IMG/VR virus record: IMGVR_UViG_2585427753_000011
Source of the DNA: a virus
Lineage: Duplodnaviria > Heunggongvirae > Uroviricota > Caudoviricetes
Direction: 5' to 3' (one strand)
DNA length: 23,703 nucleotides
Shown here: one piece after another, positions 6,108 to 23,703 of the stretch
Layout: each line of letters opens with the position of its first letter
How positions within the stretch are numbered: position 1 is the first letter of the stretch
Position numbers and translations under genes: made by a program
Notes under the pieces: generated by a model
Seen by the model: only the letters and a program-made list of their open reading frames with translations
Databases searched by the model: none
Told to the model about the DNA's origin: nothing

Positions 6108-6482
6108 ATGGGGAAGCAAGGCAAAGGCAAAGGCAACAAAAATCAGGTTAAGGTTACGTGGGCTCAGGCGTGGCGGGATGTAATGATAAGAGCCATGTCT
6201 AATGGTCAGTTGATACCTATTACCATCAGTATTATTTTAATGATTGCTGCATGGAGGTTACCAAAAACAGACTTGTCCAATTTAGCCTTCTCTATTGTTG
6301 ATGGCTTTAAGGAGCATTCCTTGGTTGGTTGGGCTATCTCGGTAATAGTGGGTTTGGCTTGGTCTGCACATGCGCGAATCATGAGGCGCTGTTTTAGTTC
6401 CGAGGCACAGAGAATCGGTAACGAGAAAACAAAGTATCAACAAAGACAGACCACTCAAGCCTTGGGTACAAGTGATAAATAG
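6108..6482 (+). CDS. Cargo gene 1: small two-transmembrane-helix protein with Lys/Gly-rich N-terminus
   Basis: 124-aa ORF; two hydrophobic segments (LIPITISIILMIAAW; LVGWAISVIVGLAWSAHA). Weak SD, so start is uncertain (alternative Met at 6183/6195). AT-rich relative to backbone. Confidence 0.6.
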   Translation: MGKQGKGKGNKNQVKVTWAQAWRDVMIRAMSNGQLIPITISIILMIAAWRLPKTDLSNLAFSIVDGFKEHSLVGWAISVIVGLAWSAHARIMRRCFSSEAQRIGNEKTKYQQRQTTQALGTSDK

Positions 6483-6502
6483 TTGTTTATTTAGGAGTTA
6501 TT

Positions 6503-7060
6503 ATGCTGACAGTGCTGTTTTATGTGCTGTTGGGTTTAGGCGCAGCACACTTCATTTACGAGCGAATCATTTTGCCGTCCATCCGACTTCATTATAGAAA
6601 CCAATTGTTTGCGCTTCGTGATGTCGCTAGGAGGAAAATCATTGATGGAGGTTCCGATACTTCCATGCAAGCGGCAACACTTGTGCATGACTCATTGAAT
6701 AACGCTATCAATAGATTGCATTTACTCACGTTGCCAAACAAATTTCGTGCTCAAAAGCGTATGGCAGAAAACCATGCAATAAGGCAGAAAATTCGGCGTG
6801 AGATAGATGTTTTCAAACGCTGTGATGATAGAGAAGTTGTTGATGTACTGTTTAAATCCGGTCGGATACTTGAAAATGTACTGTTATTCAATAGCTTAAT
6901 GTTATTGCTTTACATGTTTCCATTTGTCCTTGCTGTATGGTTCTGTGTTAGGGTCATAAAGACAGCAAGTAGTTTAGTACAGTGGGTCAAAGGAAGAGAT
7001 TTAGAGGAAGCTATAATGCTGCTTCCTGATACTCAGGTTGAAAAGGTTGTATACGCATAA
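6503..7060 (+). CDS. Cargo gene 2: membrane protein with N- and C-terminal hydrophobic helices
   Basis: 185-aa ORF with strong SD (AGGAG ~5 nt upstream); hydrophobic N-terminus (LTVLFYVLLGLGAAHFIY) and C-terminal segment (LLFNSLMLLLYMFPFVLAVWFCV) around a charged helical region; 20 nt after gene 1. Confidence 0.7.
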   Translation: MLTVLFYVLLGLGAAHFIYERIILPSIRLHYRNQLFALRDVARRKIIDGGSDTSMQAATLVHDSLNNAINRLHLLTLPNKFRAQKRMAENHAIRQKIRREIDVFKRCDDREVVDVLFKSGRILENVLLFNSLMLLLYMFPFVLAVWFCVRVIKTASSLVQWVKGRDLEEAIMLLPDTQVEKVVYA

Positions 7061-7088
7061 AAATCACCCCTTAGGGGGTGATTTTTTT
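7061..7088 (+). terminator. Rho-independent terminator ending the two-gene membrane operon
   Basis: Stem ATCACCCC (7063-7070) / GGGGTGAT (7075-7082), loop TTAG, followed by a T-run; immediately after the stop at 7060. Confidence 0.8.
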
Positions 7089-7299
7089 ACATGACTTTTG
7101 ATTAGCTGACATTGTAAATCCGCATGTATCAGATGCATTGTTTTGCATGTGGAAATGGGTGTTTTCACTGCCAGCTATCGCTACATGTAGCAAAAACACG
7201 GGCTTAATAAGAAATCATTCTGCCATAAGGCATAACTTCCCCGCGTGCTCAGGTATTGACGTCATAGATATGGATCTTTTTTAATCAAGGTATGGTATT

Positions 7300-8247
7300 A
7301 TGAAGATATTTATTAGTTGGTCAGGTCAGGACAGCCTGGAGATAGCAAAAGTATTACGGGATTGGATACCGAATGTTATTCAAGTAGCTGAGCCGTACGT
7401 ATCAGCGGAAGATATTGATAAAGGCACTCGCTGGGCGACTGATATATCAAAGGAACTTGATGACTCTTCTTATGGGATTATTTGCCTTACAAAAAATAAT
7501 ATTAATGCACCGTGGATAAATTTTGAGGCGGGTGCTTTAGGTAAAAAGGTTGATAAGAGCCGGGTTAGTCCTTTCTTGTTTAAAATTAAACCATCTGAGA
7601 TAACAGGCCCAATATTACAATTCCAGTATACTCGTTCGGATGATAAGAACGATATTTTGAAGTTGATGTTGTCAATAAATAATCAAGCAGGATTTTTGAC
7701 TGAAGAACGCTTAACTAAAGCTTTCGAGCAATGGTGGCCAAGTTTAGAGCGTGAGTTAGATAACATTCAAGATATTAACCCTGTAGATAAAGATTCCACT
7801 AAAAAAACAAAAGGTGATTCGACTTCTGAGATACAAAATCTTTCCAAAATTGTTGAAAGTTTGCTGGATATTAGCCGAACAAATCACCAATTATTGCGTG
7901 ATCCAGCATCATTATTGCCAGAAGAATATGTTAGCAAAATAATAAACAGGGAAGGGCGTAAAGAAACTGTTTTAAAAATTGTAGCTTCTGATTTATTATC
8001 CATGCATCATTCACTAATTCGTGTAAAAAGAAGATTTATTCGTCGTGGTATTGATGAAACATCTAGGAGCGAGTTAATTGAATCATTAAATAAAATGATA
8101 ATGGATTGTTCTAGAGTAATCGCTCACTTAGATAATTATTGTGGGGCTTCATCAAACAATATGTTCAATAGTGCGCTTAGATTGCGGACCAGAAATTTAA
8201 TTGACATGATGGATGAGGAGGATGCAGAACGGGATGAAATGGAATAA
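7300..8247 (+). CDS. Cargo gene 3: TIR-domain protein with uncharacterised C-terminal helical domain
   Basis: 315 aa. N-terminal ~130 aa has TIR hallmarks: KIFISWSGQDS first strand, GIICLT strand, and W-x-x-F-E-A-G motif (WINFEAGAL) aligning by eye with the catalytic-Glu region of bacterial TIR NADases. C-terminal ~170 aa has no motif I recognise. Own transcription unit. Confidence 0.75.
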   Translation: MKIFISWSGQDSLEIAKVLRDWIPNVIQVAEPYVSAEDIDKGTRWATDISKELDDSSYGIICLTKNNINAPWINFEAGALGKKVDKSRVSPFLFKIKPSEITGPILQFQYTRSDDKNDILKLMLSINNQAGFLTEERLTKAFEQWWPSLERELDNIQDINPVDKDSTKKTKGDSTSEIQNLSKIVESLLDISRTNHQLLRDPASLLPEEYVSKIINREGRKETVLKIVASDLLSMHHSLIRVKRRFIRRGIDETSRSELIESLNKMIMDCSRVIAHLDNYCGASSNNMFNSALRLRTRNLIDMMDEEDAERDEME

Positions 8248-8321: not shown

Positions 8322-8791
8322 TATATCGCTTATAATGGGTATGTTATTTTTATTTTGATAAAATCATTAAAATTGTCGATGTTATATGAATGCACATGTA
8401 TTATTAATGTTAGAAGATTATGCCTGCTTACGGCTATTGTGCTGAATTCAACTATGAACGCATCAGTATTAAAATCGTTCCATGAAATGTTCTTCGTCTA
8501 CAGCAGATGATGGGCAACGAAAAAATGACGCTGAGTGAGTTGGTCGGGGAGAATTGTTAGAGGTATTTATGGAGTGGTTTAATAATATCGGTCAATCCTG
8601 AGTTGCAGCATCACATAGACGATAGGGAATCTCTCCAGTCGTTCTGGAATGGCAGCGTTGAACAACAAGCACAGCGAGGCGTTAGATGCCCATCAGATTG
8701 ACACAGAGGGTTTATGAATCGCTGGGATTTACTTAGTTTGAAAAATAATATATTTATATGTTTTTGTATTGTGTTTGTTAAGGAGTTTGGA

Positions 8792-8998
8792 TTGAAAAGA
8801 AAACTGATTTGTGTTATGGCTTTTTGGGGGGCGTTGCTGGCTGGTTGTAATGAGAGTAATAAAAAAGAAGTTGAGGGTTGTATTGAAAGAGGTGTCCAAT
8901 ATTTTATAGAGATTGGTTCTTACCCTAAATTAAGTGATGGGCGTGATGCTGTAAAAGTTGCTACTGAACGTTGTAATAGAACAATAACGGCTTTCTGA
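8792..8998 (+). CDS. Cargo gene 4: small predicted lipoprotein (lipobox LLAGC)
   Basis: Track ORF 8714..8998 has an improbable N-terminus. An in-frame TTG at 8792 follows AGGAG (8781-8785, 6-nt spacer) and gives (M)KRKLICVMAFWGALLAG-C: a basic n-region, hydrophobic core and lipobox Cys. Mature protein ~49 aa. Confidence 0.6.
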   Translation: MKRKLICVMAFWGALLAGCNESNKKEVEGCIERGVQYFIEIGSYPKLSDGRDAVKVATERCNRTITAF

Positions 8999-9000
8999 TA

Positions 9001-9918
9001 ATGGATTATACGAGCTATATAATAGGACAGCTTCAGGTTGAGGATATTATTGATGCAATTAAAGGCGTTAATAATACTAATGTCATAAAAGATTATGTGC
9101 TGCCTGTAGTATTACCAATTATATCTTCTGTGCTGAGTTACTTTATTGCAACTAGGTTGTTTTATCGGCAGGAGGACCTTAAAGCACAAAGAAGAAAGGT
9201 AAGCGTTGTAAATAAATGTATTTATGACTACTTTTCTGCAATGACAACGTTGTTGCAAATTAAAGGGAATTATTATGGTGGGGTAAGTATAAGTGAAAAT
9301 CCTATCGAGAGGGCTTTAGCTTTTCCTGTTGTGGTTTTTTCTGGTGCTCCTCTATCATCAGATTTAAGTGAGTTGGCCTGTATATTGAGTCAAAAGGGAG
9401 TAGGGAATAATAGAGAGCCAGCAAAGACTACTAACTGGGGGGATGCTTTTGCTGTTAGTGATATAGCAAGAAGGTTTAACAGCCTATTGGCTGCATTAAA
9501 TGTTAGGAATGATTTTGATGACACCTATAGAGGAATGATTATTGAATCAACAGGTTCACCTTTGCCTACGATGCGTTTTAAAAATGATGATATTGTTAAT
9601 GCTATAGGTAGTAATAAGGCAGCTTATTACATTGATATTACTGAGCAAATAATGATTATGATAGATGTTTTGTTGCTTGATATTAATCTGTTGCTCAAAG
9701 AGTTGCCATTGTATGCTGAATCGCTGTTTGACAAAAGAGTAATGCAAGAAGATTCAGGGATTCTTAAATTCAATGATTTGCACGAACGTTTTCCTCTACT
9801 TATGAAACCTGTAACGCCACCTTCGATTAAACTCATGTCTGATTATTTGGGGTACAGTGAAGATGAGATCTTACGACGCTATCCATACCCGTTCTTTAAT
9901 ATGCATGATTGTGAATGA
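9001..9918 (+). CDS. Cargo gene 5: 305-aa protein with one N-terminal transmembrane helix, no recognisable domain
   Basis: Starts 2 nt after the lipoprotein stop (translational coupling). Hydrophobic segment VLPVVLPIISSVLSYFIATRLF near the N-terminus; AT-rich codon usage. Confidence 0.7.
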   Translation: MDYTSYIIGQLQVEDIIDAIKGVNNTNVIKDYVLPVVLPIISSVLSYFIATRLFYRQEDLKAQRRKVSVVNKCIYDYFSAMTTLLQIKGNYYGGVSISENPIERALAFPVVVFSGAPLSSDLSELACILSQKGVGNNREPAKTTNWGDAFAVSDIARRFNSLLAALNVRNDFDDTYRGMIIESTGSPLPTMRFKNDDIVNAIGSNKAAYYIDITEQIMIMIDVLLLDINLLLKELPLYAESLFDKRVMQEDSGILKFNDLHERFPLLMKPVTPPSIKLMSDYLGYSEDEILRRYPYPFFNMHDCE

Positions 9919-10040: not shown

Positions 10041-10170
10041 CTGCGCGCTGGCGGTGGTGATGATTGTCTGAGCGCGTCGTGATGGCGTTTAGATTGTGCG
10101 CCGGGGCGTTGGTGTGTCTGCGGGGTGTTTTGTACAGTGGCGAGCGTGTGAGGGCGTGATGACGGGGGTG

Positions 10171-10193
10171 TAAAAAAGCCGCCCGCAGGCGGC
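10171..10193 (-). terminator. Rho-independent terminator of the leftward P-Q operon
   Basis: On the minus strand: stem GCCGCC / GGCGGC with 4-nt loop, followed by a T-run (A-run 10172-10177 on plus strand); directly after the Q stop at 10199-10201. Confidence 0.7.
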
Positions 10194-10198
10194 GATGT

Positions 10199-11233
10199 TC
10201 AGCCGTTGTCAGTGTCCAGTGAGTAGTTTTTAAAGCGGATGACCTCCTGACCGAGCCAGCCGTTTATTTCCCGAATCCTGTCCTGTAACGGGATAAGTTC
10301 ATTGCGGACAAAGACCTTTGCCACTTTCTCAATATCGCCCAGCGACCCGACGTTTTCCGGCTTGCCACCCATCAACTGAAAGGGGATGCGGTGCGCGTCC
10401 AGCAGGTCAGCGGCGCTGGCTTTTTTGATATTAAAAAAATCGTCCTTCGTGGCCACTTCACTGAGCGGGATAATTTTAATGCCGTCGGCTTTTCCCTGTG
10501 GGGCATAGAGAAACAGGTTTTTAAAGTTATTGCGGCCTTTCGACTTCACCATGTTTTCGCGGAGCATTTCGATATCGTTGCGATCCTGCACGGCATCAGT
10601 GACGTACATGATGTATCCGGCATGTGCGCCGTTTTCGTAATACTTGCGGCGGAACAGCGTGGCCGACTCATTCAGCCAGGCAGAGTTAAGGGCGCTGAGA
10701 TATTCCGGCAGACCGTACAGCTCCTGATTAATATCCGGCTCCAGCAGGTGAAACACGGAGCCGGGCGCGAAAGGTGTCGGCTCGTTGAAGGACGGCACCC
10801 ACCAGTAAACATCCTCCTCCACGCCACGGCGGGGATATTTTGCCGGGGAGGGTTCCAGTCTGATGACCTTACCGGTGGTGCTGTAACGCTTTTCCAGAAA
10901 CGCATTACCGAATACCAGAAAATCCAGCACAAAGCGGCTGAAATCCTGCTGAGAAAGCCACGGGTGTGGGATAAACGTTGAGGCCAGAATGTTACGTTTG
11001 ACGTAAATCGGTGAGCTGTGATGCACGGCAGCACGCAGGCTTTTTGCCAGACCGGTAAAGCTGACTGGTGGCTCATACCATCTGCCGTTACTGATGCACT
11101 CGACGTAATCCAGAATGTCACGGCGGTCGAGTACCGGCACCGGCTCACCAAAGGTGAATGCCTCCATTTTCGGGGCGCTGGCGGTCATTTTTTTTGCCGC
11201 AGGTTGCGGTGTTTTCCCTTTTTTCTTGCTCAT
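10199..11233 (-). CDS. Q: Portal protein Q
   Basis: 344 aa, same length as P2 gpQ and recognisable sequence (MSKKKGKTPQPAAKK...); adjacent to cos. Confidence 0.9.
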   Translation of the reverse strand: MSKKKGKTPQPAAKKMTASAPKMEAFTFGEPVPVLDRRDILDYVECISNGRWYEPPVSFTGLAKSLRAAVHHSSPIYVKRNILASTFIPHPWLSQQDFSRFVLDFLVFGNAFLEKRYSTTGKVIRLEPSPAKYPRRGVEEDVYWWVPSFNEPTPFAPGSVFHLLEPDINQELYGLPEYLSALNSAWLNESATLFRRKYYENGAHAGYIMYVTDAVQDRNDIEMLRENMVKSKGRNNFKNLFLYAPQGKADGIKIIPLSEVATKDDFFNIKKASAADLLDAHRIPFQLMGGKPENVGSLGDIEKVAKVFVRNELIPLQDRIREINGWLGQEVIRFKNYSLDTDNG

Positions 11234-11979
11234 CAGTAAAACTCCAGAATGGTGGATGTCAGCGGGGTGCTGATACCGGCGGTGAGTGGCTCATTTAACA
11301 GGGCGTGCATGGTCGCCCAGGCGAGGTCGGCGTGGCTGGCTTCCTCGCTACGGCTGGCCTCATAGGTGGCGCTGCGTCCGCTGCTGGTCATGGTCTTGCG
11401 GATAGCCATGAACGAGCTGGTGATGTCGGTGGCGCTGCGTCCGCTGCTGGTCATGGTCTTGCGGATAGCCATGAACGAGCTGGTGATGTCGGTGGCGCTG
11501 CGTCCGCTGCTGGTCATGGTCTTGCGGATAGCCATGAACGAGCTGGTGATGTCGGTGGCGCTGCGTCCGCTGCTGGTCATGGTCTTGCGGATAGCCATGA
11601 ACGAGCTGGTGATGTCGGTGGCGCTGCGTCCGCTGCTGGTCATGGTCTTGCGGATAGCCATGAACGAGCTGGTGATGTCGGTGGCGCTGACGTCATATTC
11701 CAGACAGCCACGGCGGATGACGTCTTTTGCCTTGAGCACCATTGCGGTTTTCATTTCCGGCGTGTAGCGGATATCGCGTGCGGCGGGATAGAACGAGCGC
11801 ACGAGCTGGAACACGCCGACACCGAGGCCGGTGGCATCAATTCCGATGTATTCGACGTTGTATTTTTCGGTGAGTTTGCGGATGGATTCCGCCTGAGTGG
11901 CAAAGTCCATGCCTTTCCACTGGTGACGCTCAAGTATTCTGAATTTACCTCCGGCCACCACCGGCGGTGCCAGCACCAC
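11233..11979 (-). pseudogene. P: Terminase large subunit P, C-terminal remnant with internal tandem-repeat expansion
   Basis: 248-aa frame that opens at GTG with no upstream gene context. Reads as the C-terminal part of P2 terminase ATPase/nuclease, plus four extra 21-aa repeat copies. N-terminal ~400 aa absent; upstream sequence runs straight into endolysin K. Confidence 0.8.
11368..11682. repeat. Perfect 63-bp tandem repeat, 5 copies, in-frame within the terminase remnant
   Basis: GGCGCTGCGT recurs at 11368, 11431, 11494, 11557, 11620, then partially at 11683; on the minus strand this encodes SATDITSSFMAIRKTMTSSGR x5. Copies are identical by eye. Confidence 0.9.
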
Positions 11980-11995
11980 GCATCCGGCGCTGGCC

Positions 11996-12439
11996 GTGTC
12001 CGAAGGGACGGCGAATCATCCGCTGACGAAAAACCGGGGCTATGACGTGATAGTCACCGGACTGGACGGAAAGCCGGAAATTTTCACCGACTACAGTGAC
12101 CACCCGTTCGCACATGGTCGACCGGCGAAGGTGTTTAACCGTCGCGGTGAAAAATCCACGGCCTCCGGTCGCTATCAGCAGCTTTACCTGTTCTGGCCGC
12201 ATTACCGCAAACAGCTTGCCCTGCCGGATTTCAGTCCGTTGTCACAGGACAGGCTCGCCATTCAGTTGATCCGCGAACGCGGTGCACTGGATGACATCCG
12301 GGCGGGACGCATTGAGCGCGCCATTTCACGCTGTCGCAATATCTGGGCGTCCCTGCCGGGTGCCGGTTACGGTCAGCGTGAGCATCCACTGGAAAAACTG
12401 GTCACCGTCTGGCGTACCGCCGGCGGCGTACCGGCTTAA
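11996..12439 (+). pseudogene. K: Endolysin K, N-terminally truncated
   Basis: Frame reads SEGTANHPLTKNRGYDVIVTGLDGKPEIF... to ...TAGGVPA, which I recognise as P2 lysozyme K lacking roughly its first 18 residues. No holin Y upstream; the frame opens at a GTG at the deletion junction. Confidence 0.75.
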
Positions 12440-12453
12440 ACGGAGTAAACACC

Positions 12454-12879
12454 ATGAAGAAATTATCCCTTTCACTGATGCTGAATGTGCCGCTGGCGCT
12501 GATGCTGGCACTGTCCCTGATTTACCCGCAGAGCGTGGCCGTCAGTTTTGTCGCCGCCTGGGCGATTCTGGCGACGGTTATCTGTGTGGTTGCCGGTGGT
12601 GTCGGCGTGTATGCCACTGAGTATGTGCTGGAACGCTACGGGCGGGAGCTGCCGCCGGAATCGCTGGCCGTGAAGATTGTCACGTCGCTGTTTTTGCAGC
12701 CGGTGCCGTGGCGCAGACGGGCAGTAGCTCTGGTGGTGATGGTGGCGACGTTTATCTCGCTGGTCGCTGCCGGGTGGATTTTTACCGCGCTGATTTATCT
12801 TGTGGCGTCGCTGTTTTTCCGGCTGATACGTAAAGCCTGCCGTCAGCGTTTTGAGGGGCGGGAACCATGTCAAAGCTGA
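12454..12879 (+). CDS. lysA: Lysis accessory membrane protein LysA
   Basis: 141 aa, multi-TM, same size and position as P2 LysA. Confidence 0.85.
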   Translation: MKKLSLSLMLNVPLALMLALSLIYPQSVAVSFVAAWAILATVICVVAGGVGVYATEYVLERYGRELPPESLAVKIVTSLFLQPVPWRRRAVALVVMVATFISLVAAGWIFTALIYLVASLFFRLIRKACRQRFEGREPCQS

Positions 12880-14383: not shown

Positions 14384-15169
14384 TTATGAGTGATTTTTAT
14401 TTGATGCTTTGTATTCTAAAACCTTCTTATTGGCGTAAAAGAATTTTGTATATGACAGGAATATAACCAGACCTGAAGTGAAATAGACGAGGGATAGTAT
14501 TAATAATGCTTTTTTGCGACTGTTATTATCTTTAATCTCCAGGCTTAACCATTCGGAGTCCTCCTCGTTTAGCTGTAAGAGCTTATTGCAGGCGATTTCA
14601 GGAAGTGTGTCTTTTATAAATACGTTTTGCAGTCTCTTGCAATCGGCAAGGCTATAAGTTTTATTAAATTCAACTGCTTTATTTTTGAAGGATAAAAGAA
14701 CTTTGTCACTATAAACATAGTACATCATGTTTTTATATGGTATGCCTATGGCATCCCTTACTATAACGGATTGTTCGTTGTGTATGTAACATGCGAGGAG
14801 AATGTAAAAAATACTGGCCAGAATTACAATTATTGTTTTAATTATGTGTGGTGGTTTTGTTATGTCACCCCAGATGCGAGTAAGGAAAAAATACGATGTT
14901 TTTAGTTTTCCATCAATCAGTCCCTGCTGTATCATTCTCACATTTTCAATGCCTGATACATTGATTCCGTTAATTATTTTAAATAGTTGAATGTCGCGCC
15001 ACTCGCGGTCAAGTCTTTTTAATTTTTTGTCTGAATATCCAAAATTGAAATAATGTGCAATAAGCCTCATAAGGTTACTTTTACCAAAGCTAAAAAATGC
15101 TAATACTGCAAAGCTACAAAGGAAAAAAACGATTAGCCCCCACACATTAGTCACATTATAGCTGACCAT
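14384..15169 (-). CDS. AT-rich moron at the P2 orf30 position: membrane protein with ~3 TM helices, unknown function
   Basis: 261-aa ORF antisense to the late operons between S and V; hydrophobic segments near aa 9-28, 111-131 and 228-247; Lys/Asn/Ile/Phe-rich. Confidence 0.7.
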   Translation of the reverse strand: MVSYNVTNVWGLIVFFLCSFAVLAFFSFGKSNLMRLIAHYFNFGYSDKKLKRLDREWRDIQLFKIINGINVSGIENVRMIQQGLIDGKLKTSYFFLTRIWGDITKPPHIIKTIIVILASIFYILLACYIHNEQSVIVRDAIGIPYKNMMYYVYSDKVLLSFKNKAVEFNKTYSLADCKRLQNVFIKDTLPEIACNKLLQLNEEDSEWLSLEIKDNNSRKKALLILSLVYFTSGLVIFLSYTKFFYANKKVLEYKASNKNHS

Positions 15170-20476: not shown

Positions 20477-21070
20477 ATGTTTACTAAGCGACGATTAAAA
20501 AATATTAACTGGGAGGCAAGTTCAGTGATTCTTGCTATGGTTCTCTTTGTTGGAAATATATTTTATACAAATCATCGTGATGATATAAGCATGGAGGCTG
20601 AGAGGGACAGTATCAGAACAATGTTTGCATATGAAATCGCTAATAACCATCGCGCTCTCACTTTTCTTGATAAAACGAGACATATTGGCTTTGACGAAAA
20701 TTCGGAGCATTTTGTTGGCGAGCCTTTTGCCATTAATGTCAAATCATTAGGGGGACCTCGCTTACAGATTGCATTAAACCAGACTGATAAAGTGTTTAAA
20801 TCCTACTTCGGCGAATTAAGTAAGCTTGATAAAGAGGATGTTACTCTTCTTATGGACTATTACCATGAGCAAAGCATCCTGCTGGAGCGTGTAAAATCTA
20901 CGTTACAGAAGATGAAAAGTGGTAATGATATTAAAGTTGATATTGATGGTTGCTTATTAGAAGAACACTTCATGAATGAGCTTAATCTTTCTAATATTTT
21001 GCTTAAACGCTATAGCTATTTATTATCACAACACGCTAAGGAACATAAAACAAAAGATTTACATAATTGA
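20477..21070 (+). CDS. AT-rich moron at the P2 Z/fun position: 197-aa protein with one N-terminal TM helix, unknown function
   Basis: ORF between G and the FI remnant, where P2 carries Z/fun; AT-rich flanks; hydrophobic segment SSVILAMVLFVGNIFY near the N-terminus. Confidence 0.65.
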   Translation: MFTKRRLKNINWEASSVILAMVLFVGNIFYTNHRDDISMEAERDSIRTMFAYEIANNHRALTFLDKTRHIGFDENSEHFVGEPFAINVKSLGGPRLQIALNQTDKVFKSYFGELSKLDKEDVTLLMDYYHEQSILLERVKSTLQKMKSGNDIKVDIDGCLLEEHFMNELNLSNILLKRYSYLLSQHAKEHKTKDLHN

Positions 21071-21276: not shown

Positions 21277-21399
21277 GGCGGGGGGAATGCCCGCATTTTC
21301 TTTATCTGTTGTTTCATCCACTGACCAGCCAGGTCAAATAGCGTCTCATGTACTACCCAACGGAAAATAGTTGCACCCATTAACCACGGAGTTAAACGG

Positions 21400-21513
21400 A
21401 TGAGTGACTATCATCACGGCGTGCAGGTGCTGGAGATTAACGACGGCACCCGCGTCATTTCCACCGTATCCACAGCCATTGTCGGCATGGTCTGCACGGC
21501 TAGCCTCCCGTAA
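21400..21513 (+). pseudogene. FI: Tail sheath FI, N-terminal fragment (~35 codons) ending at a deletion junction
   Basis: ATG 21400 with GGAG SD encodes [35 protein letters not shown], which I recognise as the P2 sheath N-terminus; frame then hits TAA at 21511-21513. Confidence 0.75.
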
Positions 21514-22264
21514 CAGGCTGGAAGCCAGTGTCGCTCCGTCACTGGCCGGAATTAAAATCCCGCACATCGACCAGTCGCAGGAGTCCGATGCGAAATTCCT
21601 GACCCGTCTTGCTGAACGCAACGGCGGTGAGGTGTCGGTAAAAATGGGAAAACTGCTGTTTCTCAAAGCGGGGCAGGGGGGGACGGTCAGCGGTAAAAAA
21701 ATCCCGCAGATTACCATCACCCGCAGCGACGGCGACCGTCATCATTTTGCGATTGCTGACCGTGGAGCCTACACAGGCGTAACGGCAAAGTGGTTACACA
21801 CCAAAGACCCGAAGCCGCAAAAGCAGAAGGTAAAACTGAAACGCAAAAAGAAAGAGAAACACCTGCGCGCACTGGAGCACCCGAAAGCGAAACCGGTCAC
21901 GCAGAAGAAAGAGCCAAAAGTACCGGAAGCGCGCGAAGGTGAATACATGGCCGGTGAGGCTGACAACGTTTTTGCCCTGACCACGGTATATGCCACGAAA
22001 GCACAGGCCATGCGCGCCGCTCAGGCGAAGTGGGATAAACTGCAACGGGGTGTTGCGGAGTTCTCCATCAGCCTGGCTACTGGTCGGGCAGATATTTACA
22101 CGGAAACGCCGGTCAGAGTGTCAGGCTTTAAGCGCGTCATAGACGAGCAGGACTGGACAATCACTAAGGTGACACATTTTCTGAATAATAGCGGCTTCAC
22201 GACGTCCCTGGAGCTTGAGGTCAGGCTTTCTGATGTGGAGTACGAAACAGAAGATGATGAGTGA
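21506..22264 (+). pseudogene. D: Tail protein D, C-terminal ~250 aa, N-terminally truncated
   Basis: Track ORF 21404..22264 is an artefactual frame over the FI fragment; from about [22 protein letters not shown]... it reads as the C-terminal part of P2 gpD, ending ...EYETEDDE. No start codon or SD. Confidence 0.75.
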
Positions 22265-22345
22265 TGTAATTTATTTATCTGTTTGTTTTATAAGGATAAA
22301 TTAACTAAAATGGCACCATCAACAAAACCGGAAGAGGTGCTCGCG

Positions 22346-22564
22346 ATGTTTCATTGTCCTTTATGCCAGCATGCCGCACATGCGCGTACAAGCCGCTATA
22401 TCACTGACACGACAAAAGAGCGTTATCACCAGTGTCAGAACGTGAATTGCAGCGCCACGTTCATCACTTATGAGTCGGTACAGCGATACATCGTGAAGCC
22501 GGGAGAAGTCCATGCCGTAAGGCCGCACCCGTTGCCGTCAGGACAGCAAATTATGTGGATGTAA
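22346..22564 (+). CDS. ogr: Late gene activator Ogr (zinc-finger)
   Basis: Start at ATG 22346 gives 72 aa MFHCPLCQHAAHARTSRYITDTT...CQNVNC..., the P2 Ogr sequence as I recall it; track ORF 22283 has an N-terminal extension. Confidence 0.9.
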   Translation: MFHCPLCQHAAHARTSRYITDTTKERYHQCQNVNCSATFITYESVQRYIVKPGEVHAVRPHPLPSGQQIMWM

Positions 22565-22574
22565 TCACAAAAAT

Positions 22575-22600
22575 AGCCCCTCAGTTGAGGGGCTTTATTT
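22575..22600 (+). terminator. Rho-independent terminator after ogr
   Basis: Stem AGCCCCTC (22575-22582) / GAGGGGCT (22587-22594), loop AGTT, then TTATTT. Confidence 0.75.
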
Positions 22601-22692
22601 ATGGTCGATGTGGACGCTATGTGGACAGCGTTTGATATAAATCCATTTATATCATCAGGTTAGGTGCTTTTTTGTGACACCATCCCTGTCTT

Positions 22693-22719
22693 CCCCCACA
22701 TGATGTGGGGGTTTTTTTT
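22693..22719 (+). terminator. Terminator-like hairpin plus T-run in the prophage-host junction (attR vicinity)
   Basis: CCCCCAC (22693-22699) / GTGGGGG (22705-22711), then an 8-nt T-run (22712-22719); between ogr and host fieF. Confidence 0.6.
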
Positions 22720-22800
22720 ATCCTCAATTTGCCTGCTGCTTAATGCATTGCAGATGATTTGCTTCCGTTATACTACCGTCAGTTGATAGCGGGAGTATTT

Positions 22801-23703
22801 ATGAATCAATCTTATGGACGGCTGGTCAGTCGGGCGGCGATTGCTGCGACGGCGATGGCTTCGCTGCTATTGCTGATTAAAATTTTTGCATGGTGGTATA
22901 CCGGGTCGGTGAGTATTCTCGCCGCGCTGGTGGATTCGCTGGTGGATATCGGCGCGTCGTTGACGAATTTACTGGTGGTGCGATATTCCCTGCAACCTGC
23001 CGACGATAATCACTCGTTTGGTCACGGTAAAGCTGAGTCCCTCGCGGCGCTGGCGCAAAGTATGTTTATCTCCGGTTCGGCACTATTCCTGTTTTTGACG
23101 GGTATTCAACATCTGGTATCTCCAACACCGATGACAGATCCAGGCGTCGGGGTTATCGTGACAATTGTGGCGCTAATTTGTACGATTATCCTTGTCTCGT
23201 TTCAGCGTTGGGTGGTGCGCCGGACGCAAAGCCAGGCGGTGCGGGCTGATATGCTACATTACCAGTCTGATGTTATGATGAACGGCGCAATTCTGCTGGC
23301 GCTGGGGTTGTCCTGGTACGGCTGGCATCGCGCCGATGCTCTGTTTGCATTGGGGATCGGCATCTATATTTTATATAGCGCGTTACGCATGGGATATGAG
23401 GCGGTACAGTCATTACTGGATCGCGCATTGCCTGATGAGGAACGGCAAGAAATTATTGATATCGTGACTTCCTGGCCGGGTGTTAGCGGCGCTCACGATC
23501 TTCGCACGCGGCAGTCAGGGCCGACCCGCTTTATTCAGATTCATTTGGAAATGGAAGACTCTCTGCCTTTGGTTCAGGCACATATGGTGGCGGATCAGGT
23601 AGAGCAGGCTATTTTACGGCGTTTTCCGGGATCGGATGTGATTATCCATCAGGACCCCTGTTCCGTCGTACCCAGGGAGGGTAAACGGTCTATGCTTTCA
23701 TAA
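22801..23703 (+). CDS. fieF: Host cation-diffusion-facilitator iron/zinc efflux transporter FieF (YiiP)
   Basis: Track ORF 22759..23703; start at ATG 22801 gives 300 aa [25 protein letters not shown]..., which I recognise as E. coli-type FieF; six-TM N-terminal domain plus cytoplasmic C-terminal domain. Confidence 0.9.

Follow-up and report, generated by a model that had tools for sequence, protein, structure and literature searches.

The window analysed here, by which the whole stretch of 23,703 nucleotides is meant, holds a heavily decayed P2-like prophage, with int at its left end and ogr followed by fieF at its right end. Over 20,744 nt it is identical to JORF01000038.1, a contig of Escherichia coli 6_319_05_S3_C1. 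This isolate (ST827, phylogroup B2, O4:H40) comes from the 3-month sample, dated 15 April 2009, of a child less than 1 year old in Tanzania (PMC6222053, Table S1). It was sequenced on the HiSeq 2000 with 100-bp reads, which were assembled with MaSuRCA 2.3.2 (PMC6222053). The locus under study comprises an intact portal protein gene, the remnants of two other genes of the prophage and the junction of the deletion that truncated them.

10199 to 11233, minus strand: Q, the intact portal protein gene (PF04860), immediately downstream of P' and overlapping its stop codon
11233 to 11979, minus strand: P', the remnant of the gene for the P2 large terminase gpP, corresponding to gpP residues 423-590 plus 84 inserted residues
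11989 to 11992, no strand: deletion junction with a 4-bp overlap, GCTG, at which codon 423 of P is joined to codon ~18 of K (the match to P extends to 11992, and the match to K begins at 11989)
11990 to 12439, plus strand: K', the endolysin (GH24) gene without its first ~18 codons, recognized by the K-side match, with an annotated product of 149 aa

P' was identified from the ORF list, from Pfam and PHROG matches, by mapping on P2 gpP and through an exact match to the protein KEM18772.1. Its ORF matches Pfam Terminase_6C with E = 1.7e-49, at profile positions 21-155 of 155 only, and also matches PHROG large-terminase families; in the GenBank record, the start is placed at the second GTG (11976), which yields a protein of 247 aa. 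Q and the end of P share 99.5% DNA identity with Peduovirus P2, and P' thus descends from P2 gene P. As in P2, Q lies beside P, and the part encoding gpP residues 423-590 is kept at about 99% DNA identity. Unlike gpP, however, which has 590 residues, P' consists of the last 168 native residues and four extra units of 21 residues. The Terminase_6N ATPase/DNA-binding domain is absent, Pfam finding Terminase_6C alone. The RNase H-like nuclease domain is incomplete as well, with profile positions 1-20 (strand β1, GYD416PS) deleted. Strand β1 and most of β2 are missing, including the nearly invariant Asp of GYDPS (Asp416 in P2), and the Asp residues of IGID and HAD are kept. Numbered as in P0004, Asp160 and Asp246 do not vary in the family alignment, and Asp102 is almost invariant.

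The deletion reads CACCACGCATCCGGCGCTGGCCGTGTCCGAAGGGAC across its junction and removed ~5.3 kb, that is, P residues 1-422, the divergent late promoter region, O, N, M, L, X, Y, and the start of K. In an intact relative, the prophage of E. coli strain 0-4, its two ends fall at 25954 and 31270, and the intervening genes are annotated. In P2, the P/O intergenic region carries the late promoters of both divergent operons; since this region has been deleted, P' and Q have lost their promoter. A promoter and terminator scan found no sigma-70-like or other promoter-like site in 10100-12600, and the sequence ahead of the GTG of P' has no obvious ribosome-binding site.

A second large deletion lies at ~21400-22264 (plus strand). 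There, the ORF that crosses the deletion resembles the start of the sheath gene FI up to about 21504 and then goes on as the final two thirds of gene D (Phage_GPD profile 106-304 of 305), so that the genes for sheath, tube, E/E', tape measure and U are missing. As both the head genes and the genes from sheath to U have been deleted, the prophage can make neither heads nor tails.

Several cargo genes accompany this backbone. Three of them (6108-8247, plus strand) are located between gene A and the portal gene, in the P2 “tin/old” hotspot, and match the PADLOC models 2TM-TIR, 1TM-TIR, and TIR-TM (E = 2e-58 to 2e-118). Going by the model names, this cluster appears to be the TIR-based anti-phage system that has been catalogued for P2-like hotspots; 13 complete E. 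coli genomes contain the block at 99% or higher. The TIR genes are followed by two AT-rich cargo ORFs of 94 and 305 aa (8714-9918, plus strand), the larger of which matches phrog_21267 (unknown function) only, with no Pfam or PADLOC match. An insertion of ~875 bp between the tail genes S and V, in the position of P2 orf30, contains a gene of 261 aa (14384-15169, minus strand) that matches phrog_2407 (unknown function) and no Pfam or PADLOC entry. Read-through towards K', P', and Q has no other obvious source than the transcription of this gene, which runs leftward. An ORF of 197 aa (20477-21070, plus strand), located behind the tail-fibre assembly gene in the P2 Z/fun hotspot, matches phrog_3829 (unknown function), again with no Pfam or PADLOC match. 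The right end (22283-23703) is formed by ogr, which encodes a zinc-finger late activator, and then by the host gene fieF (Cation_efflux and ZT_dimer). In strain 0-4, the closely related intact prophage adjoins yegR/yegS, whereas the insertion described here adjoins fieF.

The repeat array and the native single unit

P' contains the only tandem array that Tandem Repeats Finder detects in the window; with a period of 63 and 5.2 copies, it is placed at 11365-11694 (99% matches, score 651). A base-by-base check shows that the period-63 identity is perfect over 11365-11689. The array, whose units were also confirmed by exact matching and by translation, has the following parts.

11365 to 11689, no strand: perfect tandem array of 325 bp, made of five 63-bp units and a 10-bp partial unit
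11365-11427, 11428-11490, 11491-11553, 11554-11616, and 11617-11679: the five identical 63-bp units
11365 to 11374, no strand: left copy of the 10-bp direct repeat GGTGGCGCTG, covering the SAT codons of the minus strand; in single-copy genes, it brackets the native unit together with a partner 63 bp away
11680 to 11689, no strand: right copy of the 10-bp direct repeat, identical with the partial sixth unit and followed by the native downstream sequence ACGTCATATTCC...

The 10-mer occurs six times in the window against an expectation of 0.05, which is far beyond chance. The 42-mer across a unit-unit junction reads GAGCTGGTGATGTCGGTGGCGCTGCGTCCGCTGCTGGTCATG. Taken in codon phase, the units extend over 11374-11688 on the minus strand, are in frame and each encode SATDITSSFMAIRKTMTSSGR; together they form residues 98-202 of the 248-aa ORF 11233-11979 and are followed by SATYEAS.... 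The initial annotation had described five identical, contiguous, in-frame 63-bp units at 11368-11682 with SATYEAS... after them, and the translation agrees with it, these being the same units taken in another phase within the array. In terms of the parent protein, the repeated unit equals residues 524-544 of P2 gpP, and the four additional 21-residue units are inserted after residue 544, with a helix and the first strand of a hairpin on one side of the insertion site and the second hairpin strand on the other.

Two plus-strand ORFs, 11305-12045 (246 aa) and 11366-11767 (133 aa), were considered as genes and rejected. Length is their sole support, and they are by-products of the reiteration of a stop-free frame; gene finders are likely to over-call such antisense ORFs.

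The native state of the gene is a single unit. When the Q-P' stretch was compared with E. coli and phage records (1,494 and 82, respectively), 993 nt of the query corresponded to 741 nt of the record in every match listed, and the difference of 252 nt equals 4 × 63. In P2, in Wphi and in the one-unit relatives L005 and L007, the arrangement is GGTGGCGCTG-53 nt-GGTGGCGCTG, that is, a 10-bp direct repeat bracketing one unit; in strain 0-4, the left copy contains a single mismatch. It had been expected that intact P genes would carry one copy, and P2, Wphi and all the P2-like genes examined indeed have one unit; an intact P2-like terminase natively provided with five copies was not met in the records compared. 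The junction between two units was searched as a 63-mer centred on it, with a threshold set to exclude the 41-nt native match, and gave no hit in 5,426 complete E. coli genomes. It is also absent from 50,697 phage records, and the exact junction does not occur in GTDB representative genomes, IMG/VR or JGI metagenomes. A recurrent expansion had been considered on account of tiny contigs (200-340 bp) of E. coli, Klebsiella and Kluyvera whose products cluster with the five-unit protein; their sequences proved to be ordinary single-unit native fragments.

Copy number in sister isolates

The distribution of the array was followed through the truncated K' protein, which served as the marker of the deletion (27 blocks on record, of which 24 contigs were read), and units were counted between exact flanks in the assemblies. 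An exact look-up of synthetic forms with one to five units returned KEM18772.1 of 6-319-05_S3_C1 as the five-unit protein (247 aa), and a protein search found other multi-unit proteins only in 6-319-05_S3_C2 and C3, with two units each. C1, C2, and C3 are sister colonies from one stool. The counts are as follows.

6-319-05_S3_C1 (the window): 5 units
6-319-05_S3_C3 (L002): 2 units
6-319-05_S3_C2, 154-kb contig (L006): 6 units
6-319-05_S3_C2, separate 973-bp contig (L003): 2 units
L005 (and 16 similar places), L007 (and 1), L009, and L010, all with the same deletion junction: 1 unit

One of the single-unit assemblies, L007, is 6_175_07_S3_C1, which belongs to the same clone (ST827, B2, O4:H40) and was obtained from another child on the same sampling day (PMC6222053). 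Judged from these assemblies, the deletion is older than the expansion, since many genomes combine the deletion junction with one unit and more than one unit is found in the isolates of one child only. This agrees with the proposal of the initial annotation that the gene had been decapitated before its repeat expanded, the same junction being accompanied by a single unit in at least 20 other assemblies.

Among assemblies with this deletion junction, the unit number is thus 1, 2, 5, or 6, and the contrast between one unit and more than one is solid. The counts 2, 5, and 6 themselves rest on assemblies of 100-bp reads, one of which holds both 2 and 6. It could be argued that the whole array is an artefact of assembly or library preparation and that the genome truly has its single native unit, as the sequence is a short-read draft, the copy numbers of the siblings are inconsistent, error-like bases lie nearby and one sibling has a poly-T run. 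We regard this as very unlikely. A junction between units assembles only from reads that contain it, and the 10-bp repeat is too short to produce a cycle in the assembly graph, so that junction-bearing reads must exist. Moreover, the junction was recovered from three independently prepared libraries of child 6-319-05. It is present in none of the other examined assemblies with the same deleted prophage, neither in those of the same-clone child 6-175-07 (L007 among them), which come from the same project and pipeline, nor in at least 17 further ones. As far as the assembled sequences can tell, the expansion is therefore real, and it is recent.

The figure of five, by contrast, is the assembler's choice and is unreliable as a count. 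A perfect array of 325 bp exceeds three read lengths and cannot be spanned by 100-bp reads, the sister colonies disagree and the assembly of C2 contradicts itself. Indeed, the 973-bp contig of C2 is redundant, its flanks being 100% identical to those of the 154-kb contig, and two units are the minimal path that includes a junction. The disagreement among siblings (2, 5, 6, and 2 together with 6) means that part of the picture is assembler behaviour. The caution that short-read assembly may distort the copy number, already expressed when the array was first noticed, was well founded.

It is rather probable that the expansion is real, with at least two units, and that five is only an estimate by the assembler, the C1 allele having another number or the culture having been of mixed length. 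This possibility qualifies the interpretation of the array as a genuine expansion and does not replace it. It is favoured by the use of MaSuRCA 2.3.2 on such short reads, by the finding of 5, 2, and 6 units in three colonies of one stool, by the two conflicting contigs of C2 and by the fact that two units, the smallest array with a unit-unit junction, are what is expected of a collapsed repeat. On the other hand, paired-end constraints and depth may have led the assembler near the right length, 5 and 6 being close, and real variation from colony to colony would give the same picture.

Some irregularities of the draft sequences were observed in the same assemblies. In the portal gene Q, about 500 bp from the array, three GGT codons are read as GGG (G for T at 10834, 10847, and 10852) within 19 bp, in disagreement with all relatives, distant ones included. 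These differences are common to the assemblies of C1 and C3 and are not found in that of C2, and nearly all differences among the sibling assemblies are G/T or A/C transversions. The pattern looks like a sequence-specific sequencing-error signature in drafts and not like real mutation. In C3, a run of ~30 T (L002 660-700) stands where the window reads ...gcccgcattttctttatctgttgtttcatcc at 21287-21311, and this run is almost certainly an artefact of assembly or sequencing.

Structure and possible roles of the remnant

The consequences of the truncation and of the insertion for the protein were considered with structural models. In the AlphaFold model of the native nuclease domain, pLDDT exceeds 90 in the core. 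A PDB sequence search with this domain found no relative, and a fold search placed it, with the G20c nuclease 5m1o as the best match (E = 2.9e-9) and the P74-26, Sf6, and T4 gp17 terminase nucleases also retrieved. In the native model, the unit (P0004 residues 210-230) forms a helix, the first strand of a β-hairpin and the turn, and SATYEA forms the second strand. The 247-aa remnant, by contrast, is modelled poorly (mean pLDDT 51.8, pTM 0.38), with values of 35-56 in the repeat region. In the RNase H-like fold, the first strand bears a catalytic carboxylate; as β1 with its catalytic Asp is missing, the P' fragment cannot be an active nuclease. The alternative raised in the initial annotation, that the remnant is still translated and that the repeat alters its nuclease domain, finds no footing here, given the loss of this strand, of the ATPase domain and of the late promoters, and the want of a confident predicted fold.

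A wider form of the same idea would be that the remnant is expressed and that the reiterated helix-strand module has a selected function, for instance as a dominant-negative or decoy protein acting against P2-like packaging, or as a target sensed by defence proteins that recognize terminases. Several observations are compatible with it: the frame is kept, the ORF has 248 aa and a GTG start, the prophage has been retained together with anti-phage cargo, and Avs sensors are known to target terminase fragments, with 8dgc (Avs3 bound to terminase) among the structures retrieved by the fold search. The reading frame, however, is no argument, as 63 is divisible by three and any unit of this length is automatically in frame. 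The region has no promoter-like site, its late promoters have been deleted, and the GTG lacks an obvious ribosome-binding site; β1, most of β2, and Asp416 are missing, and the predicted fold is poor. Furthermore, at least 20 assemblies with the same deleted prophage keep one unit, and the identical units have no sign of age or selection. A selected function of this kind is considered extremely unlikely.

In its most elaborate version, P' would be transcribed by read-through (e.g., from 14384-15169) and translated, and the helix-strand module would have expanded under selection for a repeat protein that poisons the packaging machinery of superinfecting P2-like phages or serves it as a decoy, in addition to the TIR defence cargo. 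In a milder version, the array would be hypermutable in the gut and the colonies would truly have 2, 5, and 6 units. We put this forward as a speculation of very low probability.

The array might also act as DNA or RNA, for example, by offering repeated binding sites to a protein, by working as a promoter or a hotspot of recombination, or by giving rise to a structured RNA. Each unit contains a small imperfect hairpin, TCATGG(N13)CCATGA, and the sequence GCTGGTGA (e.g., within 11626-11679), which matches the Chi octamer GCTGGTGG at 7 of 8 positions; neither of them is statistically notable. Against such a role, one or two units fold no better than shuffled sequences, whichever strand is taken (z -0.08 to -1.31), Rfam has no family match anywhere in the window, promoter-like sites were not found, and the unit is ordinary coding sequence that is single in about 1,500 E. 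coli genomes. Hardly any credence can be given to this explanation.

Origin and meaning of the array

The evidence as a whole is best explained if the array is a young and selectively neutral minisatellite (VNTR) in a pseudogene of a decaying P2-like prophage of E. coli ST827, a reading to which we assign a probability of about 0.85. The ancestral state is a single 63-bp unit between two GGTGGCGCTG 10-mers. The 5.3-kb deletion came first and took away the first part of P, together with the genes for head and lysis, while the unit was still single. The first duplication may then have been produced at the two 10-mers, either by slipped misalignment of the nascent strand or by illegitimate sister-chromosome exchange, as the anatomy of the junctions suggests. 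Indeed, all four multi-unit sequences are perfectly (63) × n + 10, and each new junction consists of a single complete 10-mer, to which nothing has been added and from which nothing is lost. With this duplication, the locus would have acquired a perfect tandem homology of 73 bp, and units could then be added fast by further slippage or by unequal exchange between sister chromatids, probably with a much higher frequency than the first step. Such a quick addition of units would account for their identity and, possibly, for a real heterogeneity in length. The identity of the units, together with their restriction to the clone of one child, indicates a very recent event. The array would persist because nothing selects on P', which, without its ATPase domain, the first catalytic Asp of the nuclease and a promoter, appears to be unconstrained and probably evolves neutrally. 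A recent expansion by slippage or unequal crossover in an unconstrained gene is what the initial annotation had proposed, and both the single-unit relatives and the absence of the junction elsewhere argue in its favour.

Rearrangements between short direct repeats that do not depend on RecA have reportedly been studied in E. coli, for example, by Lovett and co-workers. The array resembles such microhomology-primed duplications, in that the ancestral gene has 10-bp direct repeats 63 bp apart and every junction retains one 10-mer, which is the expected signature. Unlike in the duplications studied in E. coli, the mechanism is deduced here from the anatomy of the junctions. It also differs from a pure microhomology route, as the homology after the first step amounts to at least 73 bp and ordinary homologous unequal exchange could add units as well.

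Bacterial VNTR or minisatellite loci serve for MLVA typing of E. coli and Salmonella, and several of them are located in prophages. The array shares with them the presence of two or more identical head-to-tail units of tens of bases, whose number appears from the assemblies to differ between very close relatives, a probable origin and change by slippage or unequal exchange and the difficulty of being sized with short reads. In contrast to typing loci, it is known only within a single sub-lineage of the ST827 clone, from one child, and lacks a population-wide polymorphism; it occupies a pseudogene instead of an intergenic region or a surface-protein gene, and its variability is so far seen in assemblies only. 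The suggestion that it could be used as a strain-typing marker therefore holds within this one ST827 sub-lineage, provided that PCR or long reads are used, and does not hold beyond these limits.

In-frame identical repeats also occur in expressed proteins such as the streptococcal alpha C protein and staphylococcal and other surface adhesins, where the number of units is selected by immunity or adhesion. The units of P' are likewise identical, multiples of three bases in length and apparently variable in number. Alpha C protein and the adhesins, however, are expressed and secreted, whereas P' is truncated, promoterless, and cytoplasmic.

The array is a further instance of a well-known type of event occurring in a pseudogene, and its biological significance is small. 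It also carries a caution, since array counts from draft genomes are unfit for typing or evolutionary inference unless supported by long reads or PCR. At the same time, it offers a textbook case in which a 10-bp direct repeat in a gene seeds a tandem duplication that grows once selection is gone, with the order of events, deletion and then expansion, readable from related assemblies. If the variation among colonies were true, the locus would provide this ST827 lineage with a very fast within-host clock.
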